Source of the DNA: Octopus vulgaris
Lineage: Eukaryota
Reading direction: 5' to 3'
Assembly: GCA_951406725.2 (NCBI GenBank)
Contig: OX597834.1
Location: 35,030,001 to 35,094,000 of the forward strand
DNA: 64,000 nt
Numbering within the stretch: position 1 is the first letter of the stretch; every line of letters starts with the position of its first letter. The position numbers were made by a program, and so were the translations under genes. The notes beneath the pieces are model-generated. The model did no database searches. It was not told the DNA's origin and saw nothing but the letters and a program-made list of their open reading frames with translations. Positions 5,820-13,305 of the stretch are shown in pieces.

Positions 5820-6220
5820 TCTCTCTAGGTTTACCAACAAACTGTCTCTGATAGATTGAGTACTTTGGGGGTCTGGTTGAAAGAGGGAGAGAGGAGGGAG
5901 GAAGGTTGGTATAGAATTTGATGGATGAGGGACTAATAAATTGATACCTGTCTTACCACCACCACCACCACCACCACCACCACCACCACCACCACCACCA
6001 CCACCACGCACAACAGCATCATCATCATCATCATTATTATTATTACTATTATTAAGGCAATGAGATGGCAGAATTATTACAGCACCAGACGAAACACTTA
6101 GCGGAATTTCTCCCAGCTCTTTACGTTCTGAGTTCCAATGCCACCAAGGTCGACTGTGTCTCTCAATCCTTCCAGGGTCGATAGAATAGGTACCAGTTGA
6201 ACATGATGATGATGATGATC

Positions 6221-6640
6221 ATCATCATCATCGTTTAACGTCCGCTTTCCATGCTGGCATGGGTTGAACGGTGCAACTGGGGTCTGGGAAGCCAGAATGC
6301 TGCACCAGGCTCCAGTCTGATCTGGCAGTGTTTCTACAGCTGGATGCCCTTCCTAATGCCAACCACTCCGTGAGTGTAGTGGGTGCTTTTTATGTGCCAC
6401 CGGCACAGGTGCCAGACAAGGCTGGCAAACGGCCACGATCGGATGGTACTTTTTATGTGCCACCGGCACGGGGACCAGACGAAGCTGGCAACAGCCACAG
6501 TTGGATGGTGCTTTTTACGTGCCACCGGCACGGATGCCAGTCGGGCGGCGCTGGCCATGGCCACGTTCGGATGGTTCTCTTACGTGCCACCGGCACTGGT
6601 ATCACAGCTACAAATTTCATTGATGTTGATAGATTACGAT
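6221..6640 (-). mobile_element. Family C retroposon (RTE 3'-UTR-like/SINE) with four internal ~63-bp structured units and a (GAT)n tail
   Basis: GGTTGGCATTAGGAAGGGCATCCAGCTGTAGAAA block and AACCCATGCCAGCATGGAAAGCGGACGTTAAAC(GAT)n end on the minus strand. Unit starts at 6382, 6445, 6507 and 6573. More than 10 related copies occur in the window. Confidence 0.85.
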
Positions 6641-6984
6641 TTTGATTTTGATTTATGATGATGATATTAAATGCCCTGATGCAATACCAGGCAGTGACTC
6701 TCATGGCTTCTGATCTTAACTGATTTGAAGTGTTATCATATACATGTTTTGTCTTGTTAGCAAACATGGACAACAGCAGATATTCTGCTCAAAACCACAG
6801 ATTAGCTTGTCAGTTGTTTGACCTCAAACATTTGAGCATGTCCCTTAGTGGCTGACAATATGTGCATCTCTGATTACAAGCCAGAGCAGTGGTGGAGGGC
6901 ATCATAGTCATGCGGGGAGAGGAATTCTATAGGTTTTGAATAATTCCCCCTTGGAAATGTGGGTGTTTTGTTCATCATTCTTAA

Positions 6985-7205
6985 CTTTTTCGTTACCAAC
7001 CCGGCTGAAACAGGCTCTGGCTCTGTAGTACAAATGTCTTCTTTTCATAAGTTTTGAATTAAAATCTTCCACCAAACCTTAGTCACAATTTATGTTCCTA
7101 ACACTAGCTGAATGATAACTAAGTTATTTTACTAAATTCTTTGTTATATTTAAAGTAATTGAAACAAACACAGAGCATCTCAACAGAAATACAGTAACGA
7201 AAGGG
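6985..7205. mobile_element. piggyBac-type MITE
   Basis: TTAA at 6981-6984 and 7206-7209, with TIRs CTTTTTCGTTAC / GTAACGAAAGGG. A related partial copy is at ~9806-9900. Confidence 0.8.
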
Positions 7206-8934
7206 TTAAACAACTCTTATTCAGGAATCTTTTGAGCAGGATAAAGTACTCTAACTGAAGAGGAACCAAATTGGGCCCCACCTGCAAAGCCATGTGCTGT
7301 TTATCTTGATATAAACTCACCATGGCATGCACATATGGTTGTGTGCCTTGTGTACCCTTATCAGATGGGTAGTTATGAAGGGTATACTGGGCTTTGTACT
7401 TTTGTACCCAAGCATCACTTTGATGGGGTGTGCTGCTCTCTCACACAATAATAATAATAATAATAATAATTTCTCAATCAATGGCAGGATATAAGATTTA
7501 CTATACTTCACCTCCATTCCAAAGAAGATATTCAGGAGAATATCCATACAAGAGTTCATTCACCATAATCTTACTTTTTTTTTTCTTTTTTTTTGTTTGT
7601 TCTCCTCCATTTGAAATTGTAGTTTCCCTAGTCTGTTGCCCTGGTGGCAATTATAAGAAATCGTTATCACCTCATTATCAACATCACTATTATTATCATC
7701 ATTACCATCACCACCACCACCACAGCCACCACTGCTACTATCATCATCATCATTCCCACCATTATTACTACCACCATCACCACCACCACCACCACCATCA
7801 TGATCCTCATCACAATCATTATCATCTTAATAATTAAATTATATTACCATTATTATTATTATCATCACCACCACCACCACCATCATCATAAGTAATTGTA
7901 GCAGCAGCAGTAGTAGTAGTAGTAGTGTCTCCACCACCACCACTCTTTCTGTGCTGTATTCTATTGTCTTCTGCTATAATTCTTTTCTTCTACTTCCCAG
8001 CCTTGACGCCAATTAAAGATACCATCATCATCAATATCAGCGTATTACCACCACCACCACCACCACCACCATCATCATTATCAACTCGTTACTATCACAA
8101 CCTTCATCATCATCATAACCACTATAATTAACGTAATGGTAATCAGCATCACCATCATTTCCAGCATCATTATCAACATCCTAATCAACACCACCTCAAC
8201 CATCAGCATCATCATCAGCATCATCCTCATTCCCATCATCACCATCATCACCATTATCATCATTAGCATCACTACAATCACCATCAGCATCATCATCATC
8301 ATCAAAGTATTGTTTATATGTTGTCTTCAGTTGTTTTCATTTCAGCTTATACTCTGTGTGTGTGTGTGTGTGTGTATGTGTGTGCATGCATGTGTGCATG
8401 TATGTGTGCATGTATGTATGTATGCATGTACATGTGCATGTATGTGTGCATGTATGTATGTGTGCATGTATGTATGTGTGCATGTATGTATGCAGTATGT
8501 GTGTGTGTGTGTGCATGAAACTGTGTATGTGACTGTGTGCACAATGTGTACATGTGTGTGTGCATGCATGTGCACGTGTGTGTGTGTCTTCATGCCCTCT
8601 CATCTATATGTATTATTTCTAGTGCAGGTGTACTAACAAGAATATAAATGCACACACACACACACATTATGCAACATAGCACAGTTATTTCCTCTCTCTC
8701 CCTCTCTCTCTGCCCCTCTGCTGTAAAACTAACAAATAAAGCTGGACTATGTCTCACCGTCTTTTGCTTGGTGCAGTCCACTGGCAGAACCAGTAGCAAG
8801 ACAGAGACAAACGGCAATGCAGCAGTATTCAGTTCCAGCCCTGTATACTGTTGTGCCACCACAAGGTCCAGTCTTTGTTGCAGCGTGGTGTGGTGGCTTA
8901 TATGCTTCAATGACCCCCTCCCCCCCAAGAGCTT

Positions 8935-9478
8935 TACCAGTGGAGTGCAAATTCCTAATAGGGCCTCCCATGCTGGACAGATAAAAGGATAGATGCGAAA
9001 CTAATATGGACCGCATCTTTCCAGGTATAAAAATGGGTTCGCAAAGGGCCAACACCTCTATCTAGAAAACAAGTAAAATAACGTAAAGTATACTAGCCGT
9101 CTCAATATGACTAACCACTAGGAGTGGGTGTTACTGTAGCTTTTTAGCCCCAGGAGATCATCGTCTCCAGCTGGCTTTAGGCACACTTTCTGTGCCCTTA
9201 TGATATTTGCAAAGGGAGGTCATCCCCTCTCGTAAACCTAAGTGATACGCACGGACTGCAGTTTCGAGATTATTGTCTCTTGTCAACGCACGGTAATCAT
9301 TAGTTTTCAATGAGTAGAGACCTGTTTGCGAATATCTATTTAATGTAAGCATTGTTGACAACTGAAAACTGATAAGACCAGGGAGAGGATGGTTTTCCTT
9401 CAGAGAAGACAGCTCAGAGTCAAGAACGGCGGAGAAAAGTTGTTTGTGGTCTATGCTTCATAGGGAGCGAAGGGTTTC
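8935..9478 (+). mobile_element. Internally deleted RTE-clade LINE derivative hosting an HHR-bearing insert
   Basis: 9403-9477 translates EKTAQSQERRRKVVCGLCFIGSEGF, resembling RTE ORF2 C-termini (AQDRxxWRxxVxGLCS). The upstream GGGTTCGCAAAGGGCCAACACCTC..AGAAAAC resembles RTE 5' regions. The 5' boundary is uncertain. Confidence 0.55.
9243..9299 (-). ncRNA. Type I hammerhead ribozyme with a U3-A8 variant core (predicted complete)
   Basis: Minus strand: TGAT-TAC-CGTGCG [TTGACAA] GAGA-CAATAA-TCTC [GAAA] CTGCAG [TC] CGTGCG-T-ATCA. Stem I is 6 bp plus a 4-bp extension, stem II is 4 bp, stem III is palindromic, and the cleavage triplet is GUC. Confidence 0.75.
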
Positions 9479-9559
9479 AGTCAGCAAAACAAACACATGC
9501 TTTGAGTAAGAAGGAAAGGGGCAGGCACCATAGAAATGGTAAATGGTTTACAGCAGAAA

Positions 9560-9781
9560 GGCGGCGAGCTGGCAGAATCATTAGCACACCGGGCGTAATG
9601 CGTATCCGTATTTCGTCTGCCGCTACGTTCTGAGTTCAAATTCCGCCGAGGTCGACTTTGCCTTTCATCCTTTCGGGGTCGATAAATTAAGTACCAGTTA
9701 CGCACTGGGGTTGATGTAATTGACTTAATCCCTTTGTTTGTCCCCTCTGTGTTTAGCCCCTTGTGGGTAGTAAATAAATAA
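9560..9781 (+). mobile_element. tRNA-derived SINE family B (Nin/Deu-like core), young copy with 14-bp TSD
   Basis: A-box TGGCAGAATCA, B-box GAGTTCAAATTC, core AGGTCGACTTTGCCTTTCATCCTTTCGGGGTCGATAAATTAAGTACC. Exact TSD GTTTACAGCAGAAA at 9546-9559 and 9782-9795. About 15 copies occur in the window. Confidence 0.9.
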
Positions 9782-9985
9782 GTTTACAGCAGAAAAGAAA
9801 CAACTTTAACCCTTTTGTTACTGTATTTATATTGAGATGCTCTGAGTTTCTTTCAATTATGTTAAATATAACAAAAAACTTAGTAAAATAAGTTGATAAA
9901 GTTAGTACCAGTTGAGCACTAGGGGTCAATGTAATCGATTTAACCCCTCCCAGAAATTGTTGGCCTTGTGCTTAAATTTGAAACC

Positions 9986-10210
9986 ATTATTACTATTATT
10001 ATTATCATTTATTGTCATTGCACAGCTTCTAATGCTGGAGATGTACTACGGTGCCAACTGTTCACTACCAGTGAACTAAGGCAACACCCCTTGTTTTTCC
10101 GGAGTATTTGAGCGGTTCCAAGCAGTGCTGTTTTCTGCAAGTGCTCCACCCTTATTGCAGCCCCTATTTGTTCTATGTACTTCTCAAGACTTTTATTTAC
10201 TGTTTCCAAC
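9986..10210 (-). mobile_element. 3' remnant of an RLE-type non-LTR retrotransposon (R4/Dong-like)
   Basis: ETVNKSLEKYIEQIGAAIRVEHLQKTALLGTAQILRK matches the LQKxALLGTAxILR C-terminal signature. It is followed by a short 3' UTR and a (TAA)n-type tail on the minus strand. Confidence 0.7.
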
Positions 10211-10645
10211 CTGCAGAATCGTCATCATCATCGCCGTCGTCATTATCATTAATTATTATAAAAAGAATTAATTATTATTATTATTATTATTTGCCAGAGG
10301 TGAGCTGGCAAAATCGTTAGCACACTGGGTGAGACGCTAAGCAACATTTCGTCCACCTTTACATTCTAAGCTCAAATTCTGCCAAGGTTGACTTTGCCTT
10401 TCATCCTCTCGGGATTGATAAGTTAAGTACCAGTGATATGCCAGGGTCGATGTAATCAGCTAATCCCCTCCCCCAAAATTTGAAGCCTTATAAGTCTGTA
10501 GTAGAAAGTATCTGTTCAACCCATACCAGCATGGATAACGGACGTTAAATGATGATGATTATTATTATCATTATTATTATTAGTAGTAGTATTATTATCA
10601 CCATTATCATCATCATTATTAGTAGTATTATTATCACCATTATCA

Positions 10646-10679
<34 letters not shown>

Positions 10680-12250
10680 GGCAGCGAGCTAGCAGAATTG
10701 TTAGCACACTGGGCAAAACACTTAGCAGCATTTTGTTCTGAGTTCAAATTCCACTGAGGTTGACTTTACCTTTCATCCTTTTGGTGTAGATAAATTAAGT
10801 ACCAGTGAAACACTGGGGTCAATGTCATCTAGCCCCCCCTCCCACCAAATTTCAGTACTTGTGCCTTTAGTAGAAAGGATTATTATAATTATTATTATTA
10901 GTAGTAGTAGTAGCAGCAGCAGCAGCAGTATAAAGGAGGAGTATTTCTCTGACAAATAAATATATATGGCATGGCTGTTATCATTTTGTCTCATGTGAAA
11001 GGGCATGGTTGTCACAACTTCCATTAAGACCCAGAGCTTCCTCCCTTCTGGAAGCATCTTTGGCCCAACATGTCTCTGGAGAAGTCAACAGAACCCATGC
11101 TAAACATCTCTGCTATGGCACCATAGTGAAACTACACAGGATAGAGATGGAGGAGGAGAATGAAGGGAGGGAGGCAAAGAGGAAGGAGGAGAAAGAGGGC
11201 AAGGAAGAAATGGTAAACAGTAGGAGGAGAGAGAGAGAGAAGGGTGGAGGGTTGAGAAAGAGCCTGGTGCATCTGGGTTAGTGGTTCCCCAACCTTATTA
11301 CAGCGTTTACTGTGACCTCAACATGAATACAGAGGCCATTATTCGTGGTCAGTAAAATTAGACAACAATGTCGAAACTGTACTTTTATTAAACATAAACA
11401 CACACACACACATATATATATGCACACATGCATACATAGAGACATACATATATACATACATGTACATGCTAACATACATGCACGTATATACACACATGCA
11501 CATATATAAACACATACACACAAACACACACATGCATGTATATACACACATACACACACACATATATATATATACACACACACACACACATATATATGCA
11601 CACATGCATACATAGAGACATACATATATACATACATGTACATGCTAACATACATGCACATATATACACACAAACACACATGCACATATATACACACATA
11701 CACACAAACACACACATGCATGTATATACACACATACACACATATATATATATATACACACATACACACACACACACACACATATATATACACACATACA
11801 CACACAAACATGCTATATATGCATAAGTAATAGTTAATGCATACATACCTAAGTATGCACCTATTTTTTTGCATACACATAAGCTAATATTTGTATACAT
11901 TCAAATTAGCAAGTGTACATACACATATGAATACGTACGTACATACTGGTATGTGTATACATGCATATTTGTACATGTATAAACACACACATTAGTATGT
12001 ATATACATGCATACTTACTAGTACATACATACATATTAATTTGTGTAGATACAAACCTACAAGCATGTACATATATACATAGTAGTAAATGTATACTCAC
12101 ATACTAGTATGTTTATACATACATTCTAGTATGTACACACACACATACAAACCCAAAATAGACTCAGGAAAAAATATCAAACAATTTGATACAAACATCA
12201 ATTGCAAAATGGCTAAAGAATTTATGACCAACTAAGATTTTATGTTAGAA

Positions 12251-12947
12251 CAATGTTTCTCATCTATTTTTAACCTATGAACCCCTGTGATTCCTATTTT
12301 GACTTGGGTGGACCCCCATAACCATTTGATATATTAAAAACCCCATTATATTTTTATAATTAAATATTATTTGGAATTGTAAAAGAAAAGTTAATATATT
12401 TTGTATATTGTAGAAGTGTAACCAATTTATTCCAAATAAATTTTAGCAACAAAATCTTATATGGGACCCCTAAGGGTCATACAAACCTCAGTTGAGAACC
12501 ACTGATCTATAGAGACCCTTTTGTTTCCAATTTTATTTGGATGGACCCTTATAGCCATTCAATGTTTTTAAGAAATCGTTTTATATTTTTAGAATTATAT
12601 AAATTATTAGAAATTGTATTAAAGAATTGTTAAAATTTTATGTATTGCAGAAGTAAAACCAATTTATTGCAGATAAATTTTAACAACAAAATTTTGCAAG
12701 GACCCCAATGGCTACATGGACCTTGATTGGGAACCACTGAACAATATGGACCCTTACAGTCATTCAATGTTTAAAGAAATCCTTTTATATTTTTAGAATT
12801 ATATAAATTATCAGAAATTGTATTTATGAATTGTTAAAATATTTTATGTATCATTGAAATGTAACCAATTTATCGCAGACAAATTTTAACAACAACATCT
12901 TGTATGAGACCCCTAAGGGGTATATGTACCCCAGTTGAGTACCACTA
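12251..12947. mobile_element. hAT-type MITE (12251-12504) followed by two tandem copies of its right part
   Basis: Left end CAATGTTTCTCA. Right ends TGAGAACCACTG (12504), GGGAACCACTG (12739) and TGAGTACCACTA (12947). The internal AT-rich segments align with each other and with 54837-54969. Confidence 0.7.
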
Positions 12948-13305
12948 TGTTAAACAATCCAAAATCTACAGGAAAAGCTGATGGAACATACTCACAGGTT
13001 AACTAATTTCTCTTGAAGATGAACAACAAGCAGTAAATGAAAAGGCTTTTATTATTGTAAAACATTGCAAGGCCACAGAGACAATTAACAACCATAAATT
13101 TATATTAAGCGCCCAAGTGATACAGCACAGCATGAAATGTTGTAACTTCAAGGTTATTAAGTGTTGCGCACCCCCAGGATGGTCTAGAATCATGCTGGCA
13201 GTGATGGTGATGGTGGGGGATCTGTAATGTAAATAAACAGTACAACCAAGATAAAATATGGTTTTACATGAGATACGGAGTGAGTATTTATCCTGAAAAT
13301 GTGAC

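Follow-up and report, generated by a model that had tools for sequence, protein, structure and literature searches.

Introduction

Metazoan non-LTR retrozymes, as described for coral, mussel and axolotl in the main text of PMC7229834, are non-coding repeats without LTRs that occur as dimers to multimers of 150–450-bp units, with a GC content below 50%, one type I hammerhead per unit and a highly self-paired RNA; a target site duplication (TSD) larger than 4 bp is an optional trait. Those of mussels (350–390 bp) self-cleave and form circles (PMC7229834). Hammerheads are also found in the pLTRs of Penelope-like elements (PLEs), including Schistosoma Cercyon, and these are presented in PMC4209133 as minimal motifs in which stem II is long, stem I is short and loop 1 is not well defined, and which lie in or derive from ORF-bearing PLEs. 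They share with the family reported here the U3-A8 core (about 1,300 matches in S. mansoni), the palindromic stem III, the dimer mode and the occurrence of opposite-strand pairs 100–700 bp apart, and natural covariation to U3-A8 is described in PMC3088659. According to PMC8557442, PLE insertions are characterised by the loss of 5' sequence, by partial tandem arrangements, by a 5'-truncated copy in inverted orientation, by a bias towards microsatellites and by a tail of 30–40 bp, often at one end only, and the Hydra clade of PLEs, which inserts into (TA)n, is defined by the motifs RWK, DKT and CxCX5C. Vertebrate retrozymes have been interpreted as non-autonomous PLE derivatives in a preprint on Xenopus (bioRxiv 10.64898/2026.07.22.740005) which argues from co-occurrence and from homology to pLTRs, works with canonical and minimal descriptors, and calls its own evidence on the life cycle limited. 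The monomers, dimers and multimers reported there, and their co-occurrence with PLEs, resemble what is found here; in our case the link to PLEs comes from insertion anatomy, without pLTR homology to the one PLE family compared. We analysed a window of 64,000 nt from the genome of Octopus vulgaris, which contains a single copy of such a hammerhead-bearing family.

The hammerhead in the window

By direct reading and alignment, the minus strand of positions 9243–9299 forms a type I hammerhead with a bulged stem I (UAC/U internal loop), a U3-A8 core, a 4-bp stem II and a palindromic stem III, and all the minus-strand elements named in a preliminary description of the locus are located there. The stem I extension TGAT (9299–9296), whose partner is ATCA (9246–9243), is followed by the UAC bulge (9295–9293), by the 5' strand of stem I (CGTGCG, 9292–9287, paired with CGTGCG at 9253–9248) and by the core UUGACAA (9280–9286, with U3 at 9286 and A8 at 9281), which is a trait of the subfamily. 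Stem II (GAGA/UCUC with the 6-nt loop CAAUAA, 9266–9279) has a G-C closing pair in sister copies, and leads to GAAA (9265–9262), CTGCAG (9261–9256) and a GUC triplet with the predicted cleavage site at 9254/9253, corresponding to positions 190/191 of the repeat unit. Stem III (9255–9262) is self-complementary from A15.1 to U16.1, and is predicted to pair between two hammerheads. The conserved residues G5, A6, A9, G12, A13, A14, A15.1, U16.1 and H17 are all present. The UAC/U internal loop probably matches the Schistosoma tertiary motif.

The 254-nt stretch that had been taken as the whole element is more stable than its shuffled versions (z of −2.56, with 3 of 200 shuffles equally stable). In its predicted minimum free energy (MFE) fold as a monomer, a long rod closes the ribozyme and stem III is left unformed. 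Three hairpins had been proposed downstream of the cut site; two of them (9179–9197 and 9153–9168, together spanning 9153–9197) are in this fold, whereas the AGGGG segment of the third pairs upstream instead and extends stem I. Co-folding two hammerheads from the window results in a complete double hammerhead at −31.7 kcal/mol, as compared with 2 × −11.0 kcal/mol for the separate molecules, and in this model the window copy, with its one hammerhead, would cut only given a second copy in trans. Rfam misses the family, with no hammerhead match at E ≤ 5 over 7 kb (6000–13000) or at E ≤ 10 over 151 nt (9200–9350).

The repeat unit and its insertion site

A search of the genome (2.8 Gb, 227 contigs) returned 2237 candidates, of which the 40 that were scored yielded 47 matches, 40 of them near full length at 92–100% identity. 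Because of these matches and of the stability of the fold relative to shuffles, the insert is not a chance product: the hammerhead-bearing mobile repeat is real. Tandem head-to-tail junctions set the length of the unit at 357 nt, and an array on one contig contains at least 10 hammerheads at a spacing of 355–357 nt. The proposal of a dispersed, non-coding and tandem-forming repeat family is thus confirmed, while that of a 254-bp monomer is replaced by a longer unit. The window copy covers positions 9080–9346 (minus strand) and is a 5'-truncated copy of the 357-nt unit of what we call family A (unit 98–357 followed by 1–7), 94% identical to the natural unit in locus L007; the host repeat aligns up to 9347 on one side and from 9079 on the other.

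These boundaries also account for the 8-mers previously interpreted as a TSD, both of which sit where they were claimed to be and consist mostly of the element's own sequence. On the minus strand, the right-hand 8-mer owes 7 of its 8 nt to the short-type 3' end (9080–9086, unit 1–7), and the left-hand one owes 6 of its 8 nt to the 5' truncation point (9341–9346, unit 98–103). Most of 30 copies compared have ACATTA (9346–9341) and TTACGTT (9086–9080) at the corresponding positions, and the remainder of their flanks is for the most part unrelated. Among seven empty sites of the host repeat, the three that align best contain about 5 nt that the window lacks and show no duplication, although with a host repeat that is about 25% diverged this loss could predate the insertion. 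The window site, the one locus considered in this respect, therefore lacks the TSD larger than 4 bp and has lost about 5 nt, which differs from the retrozymes of PMC7229834, where TSDs are larger when present. Family A and the related family B described below have in common a hairpin that closely precedes the short 3' end (9095–9112, minus strand) and is a candidate recognition site for the mobilising reverse transcriptase (RT).

The host is an old interspersed repeat, the upstream part of which lies at 9347–9502 and which resumes after the insert at 8856–9079, with about 5 nt of the target missing. Where it flanks the insert, it is approximately 64–85% identical to its other copies, which align on both sides of the insert. 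The earlier suggestion of an RTE relic finds no support, as similarity to RTE proteins was absent from the 1041 open stretches of the loci collected here. About 200 nt from the retrozyme, at 9560–9790, the same host repeat carries another repeat which we take to be SINE-like, and a similar sequence is present in L247.

The unit agrees with the metazoan retrozymes of PMC7229834 in the following traits. It is non-coding (the longest ATG-initiated ORF in a natural dimer is 72 aa), has no LTR, has a GC content of 41%, and forms tandem repeats of 357 nt, up to an array of 10, with one type I hammerhead per unit. Folded as a circle, a natural family A unit is 60% paired with a z of −4.0, and a family B unit has a z of −5.5; in neither case were any of 100 shuffles as stable. 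Simple consensus patterns detected no Pol III A or B box on either strand of the unit, and no ORF for an RT with GIY-YIG, which an autonomous PLE would have between its pLTRs, is present in the unit or between tandem units. The basal pair of stem II is a U·U mismatch both in family B and in axolotl HHR_Amex2 (PMC7229834). What sets the octopus repeats apart from the retrozymes in the main text of PMC7229834 is that non-canonical cores (U3-A8, C4) dominate the young subfamilies, that stem III is a 6-nt palindrome plus an A-U pair, and that inverted arms are common, a word ("inverted") which that text does not contain; moreover, cleavage and circular RNA are predicted from sequence here, whereas both were observed in mussels. 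Compared with the PLE pLTR hammerheads, stem I is 6 bp with a UAC/U loop, stem II is 4 bp, and the unit has no ORF.

None of the sequencing runs on record as RNA holds the unit. Contigs from five runs guessed to be RNA, a type of assembly that cannot show circles, cover it with a dip in depth 5' of the cut site, and since the same dip is seen in three large runs of unstated type that are probably DNA, it is uninformative on cleavage or expression.

Covariation and exchange of the core

The alignment comprises 82 distinct hammerheads. Family A contributed 77 of its 92 sequences, the other 15 being left out by eye as truncated or spanning junctions, and family B contributed all 5 of its own. Base pairs are formed in 94.9% of the cells of the stems, as opposed to 27–57% in slid controls, and 11 of the 21 pairs have changed on both sides, counts that reflect related sequences with a handful of subfamily-level events behind them. 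Covariation of the stems, a check suggested in the preliminary description, is thereby supported. Pair 3-8, Watson-Crick in the active fold, is U-A in 70 copies, C-G in 5, U·G in 3 and something else in 4, and the closing pair of stem II is A-U in 42 and G-C in 38. Positions A6, A9, A13, A14, A15.1 and U16.1 are invariant and G5, G12 and H17 nearly so (at least 90%). Stem I has been replaced between the two families, with the UAC/U internal loop kept in B and in most of A (it reads UAG in one family A subfamily). All stem III variants (CTGCAG, CCGCGG, CCATGG and CCTAGG) are self-complementary, including the innermost pair, which a hairpin within the monomer cannot form.

The composition of the core was then compared among subfamilies, with counts that are drawn from the first contigs by patterns fixing some positions, and so describe these listings and not genome-wide frequencies. 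A family A pattern requiring G10.1-C11.1 had 189 matches; among the 100 listed, 96 are U3-A8, 3 are C3·A8, 1 is U3·G8 and none is C3-G8. The U3-A8 core of the window copy is therefore inherited and not a private mutation, as had been proposed, and it marks one subfamily and not the whole family. A sister subfamily, retrieved with a pattern fixing C3 and G8, had 145 matches, and the 100 listed comprise 71 with C4 and 29 with U4, although some of the U4 copies may be due to CpG decay (both arms of two inverted pairs share U4). All but one of these 100 are mismatched at 10.1-11.1, 92 of them as C·A. It had been expected that searches restricted to CUGAnGA would miss the family; they would find part of it, as 29 of the 100 listed copies of the C3-G8 subfamily have that core.

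Family B (about 360 nt) is colinear with family A and 63% identical to it. A pattern fixing U10.1·U11.1 had 1064 matches, and the 100 listed read CCGAUGA (79), UUGAUAA (14) or UUGAUGA (7). The form with C4 occurs in long arrays at 99.5% identity. Arrays of this family reach 15+8 units arranged head to head (L098:6273-7003, L101:1-1620, L192-L221). An older family C has 2486 candidates at about 80% identity, and in 29 copies C3-G8 was seen in 23, U4 in 27 and A·A at 10.1-11.1 in 24. It is 62% identical to family A and has a canonical CUGAUGA core and a GUA triplet (L268:3185-3517, L296-L320). A pattern with the canonical core and a 4-nt stem III had a single match, which is unrelated.

In a tree for which 130 of 144 cuts were kept and the core was masked, families A and B separate with full support, and each of them holds both C3-G8 and U3-A8. 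Barring recombination, pair 3-8 has thus changed at least twice. A direction of change in family A was considered, but the C3-G8 sequences nest within U3-A8 when the core is included and their position is unsettled when it is masked, so no direction is claimed. The tandem dimer at L091:1030-1756 has units with different cores (C3C4-G8 and C3·A8), which suggests template switching or recombination between subfamilies.

Insertion anatomy

The ends of the copies were counted in loci from similarity and pattern searches, a non-random sample, leaving out segments at the edges, the L154 array and 53 segments of a captured 66-nt fragment. The 133 distinct 3' junctions fall into two groups of 58, at unit 350–13 and 41–59, with 17 elsewhere, and TA repeats follow 49 of the 133. 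The 5' ends, by contrast with these fixed 3' ends, are scattered over the unit (135 ends), and 39 of the 135 segments exceed one unit. Inverted pairs arranged head to head number 44, and in 32 of them a short end is combined with a tailed one, the tail of about 47 nt being on one arm only; one pair is short/short, none has a tail on both arms, and 11 have another end. The resulting picture of 5' truncation, inverted 5' copies, a one-ended tail and a bias for (TA)n corresponds to the PLE architecture and to the Hydra clade as presented in PMC8557442, including the partial tandems, and differs from it in the length of the tail (about 47 nt, not 30–40) and in a unit without ORF.

Most copies run intact through the cleavage site, from which we infer a template that had been re-ligated into a circle or had never been cut. 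The 5' ends do not pile up at that site, with 9 of 135 within unit 184–196 against 4.9 expected, and several ends near it are explained by microhomology. In six copies the upstream flank is common over 1.5 kb; they are treated as duplications, and junction de-duplication collapses them in the 5' count. That these copies might terminate a longer autonomous element at its 3' side was considered and rejected, as the flank consists of an oppositely oriented PLE relic and a LINE. The captured 66-nt fragment (unit 298–357 followed by 1–6) is a 3' piece of the unit which lies in another repeat and was amplified along with it (L103, L107, L133 and about 50 others). At L098:3427-5095, a family A copy is interrupted by a 1.7-kb segment with a gag-like/zinc-knuckle ORF, flanked by a duplication of about 12 nt of unit sequence.

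Origin of the repeat and alternatives

Most probably, the insert is a copy, shortened at its 5' end, of a non-coding tandem repeat that has a unit of 357 nt and a type I hammerhead fold. This repeat is likely a non-LTR retrozyme of animals; its RNA is predicted to cut itself as a double hammerhead, and a PLE acting in trans likely carries out its reverse transcription and insertion. Mobilisation by a PLE is proposed because the two fixed 3' ends, ragged 5' ends, inverted arms, one-ended tail and TA-repeat targets match PLE anatomy. Read-through transcription of a tandem array would generate a multimeric RNA, in which the palindrome of stem III would let adjacent hammerheads pair and cleave behind the GUC triplet, and the monomers may be ligated into circles of about 357 nt. 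A PLE enzyme with RT and GIY-YIG domains could then nick AT-rich DNA and prime reverse transcription of the RNA at roughly position 5 or 53 of the unit; copying would pass the cleavage site, re-ligated or uncut, for a variable length, and frequent template switching would give rise to the inverted arm. The window copy, with one hammerhead, would be a dead-end product of this process, and it is in any case a truncated dead end.

The alternative that fares best, which we nevertheless regard as unlikely, is that the same PLE-mobilised repeat has a catalytically weak or dead hammerhead, the fold being retained for a structural role in cis (in RT binding or in the stability of the RNA) and the templates being uncut multimers. 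Successful subfamilies do carry U4C, U3-A8 and mismatches at 10.1-11.1 (the C·A and A·A counted above), the youngest arrays combine C4 with U·U, and no accumulation of 5' ends is seen at the cut site; in vitro, activity is considerably reduced by U4C (PMC3088659). What speaks against this alternative is that pair 3-8, relevant only to the active fold, shifts coordinately in families A and B, that the core positions are invariant or nearly so in the 82 copies, that the self-complementarity of stem III is usable by the dimer alone, and that U10.1·U11.1 is the best-tolerated mispair (PMC3088659).

It is quite improbable that the unit is instead the pseudo-LTR or 3' end of an autonomous PLE still to be found, with the copies as ordinary 5'-truncated PLE insertions. 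The insertion anatomy would fit, PLEs usually occur as truncated solo copies (PMC4209133), and a few hundred loci were read among thousands of candidates; yet copies longer than 357 nt have another unit upstream and not an ORF, one array has 10 units, and the PLE ORF relics adjoining some copies differ from the unit in the hammerheads and 3' ends that they carry. Spread of a satellite-like repeat as DNA, by unequal crossover or rolling-circle eccDNA and with no RNA intermediate, is very improbable: it would agree with the arrays of 10 units and more (up to 15+8 in family B) and with the six copies on a common flank, for which some spread by duplication is accepted, but not with the marks of retrotransposition (fixed 3' and ragged 5' ends, the one-ended tail and the inverted arms), nor with covariation at the RNA level.

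Several points speak against the preferred explanation. The 5' ends do not cluster at the cut site, the Hydra-type PLE described below has no sequence in common with the unit in the 30 loci compared, and every family and subfamily departs from the optimal core or from the optimal 10.1-11.1 pair, which could mean decay. In the Xenopus preprint, 8 of 9 predicted retrozyme dimers were uncut in vitro and 1 of 9 was cleaved (bioRxiv 10.64898/2026.07.22.740005). A more speculative reading, to which we give a minority chance, is that the superfamily has been selected for slow hammerheads. Each amplified subfamily would then keep the catalytic fold and the dimer palindrome together with at least one brake (U3-A8; U4C; or C·A, U·U or A·A at 10.1-11.1), and the young autonomous PLE of this genome also has C4; pair 3-8 would have switched two or more times, and family B would preserve a U·G intermediate. 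If this is true, the subfamilies are a natural tuning series in which partial cleavage supplies PLE reverse transcription with templates that are multimeric or circular, and the role of the hammerhead in PLE retrotransposition becomes directly testable.

The retrozyme class and the U3-A8 core are already published, and what appears to be new is the coordinated swapping of the core across sister subfamilies. Literature searches on hammerheads, retrozymes and Penelope elements in octopus or cephalopods returned no paper on this family, and those on hammerhead core variants, PLEs and retrozymes did not return repeated core swapping or PLE insertion anatomy of a retrozyme, although supplements or repeat libraries may list the family, its cores or such cases; neither octopus nor cephalopods are mentioned in the main text of PMC7229834. 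By joining PLE-type insertion marks to an ORF-free retrozyme, the family bears on how animal retrozymes move and on what hammerheads do for PLEs. It also offers nearly isogenic natural core variants (U3-A8, U3·G8 and C3-G8, with or without C4) of known copy number and relative age, so that cleavage rate can be compared with amplification success. Rfam and canonical descriptors undercount elements of this type.

Candidate helper elements

A PLE fragment beside one of the copies led to a young PLE family with 24239 candidates, 150 of which were scored at 97–100% identity. Its open frames of up to 717 aa contain RWK, DKT, CxCX5C and GIY-YIG-like motifs, which indicate a Hydra-type PLE; this assignment rests on motifs, since Pfam returned nothing for the 717-aa frame and sub-threshold GIY-YIG matches for fragments. 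This PLE is very abundant (L292:1440-3794, minus strand; L262-L295), and its RT motif is YKDD. Its 3' hammerhead, in which stem II is long and branched and stem III is palindromic, has C4 in all 30 copies compared, and its copies have two types of 3' end, several of them ending in TA repeats. No sequence common to the A and B units and the 3' region of the Hydra-type PLE was found in 30 loci, in which one abundant PLE family was checked. This Hydra-type PLE is possibly the mobiliser of the retrozyme in trans, as a candidate.

Two related PLE relics of another family (L233:~880-960 and L004:~690-770, the latter on the minus strand) contain hammerhead-like motifs with a long stem II, one of which reads CCGAAGA and the other CUGAAGA.
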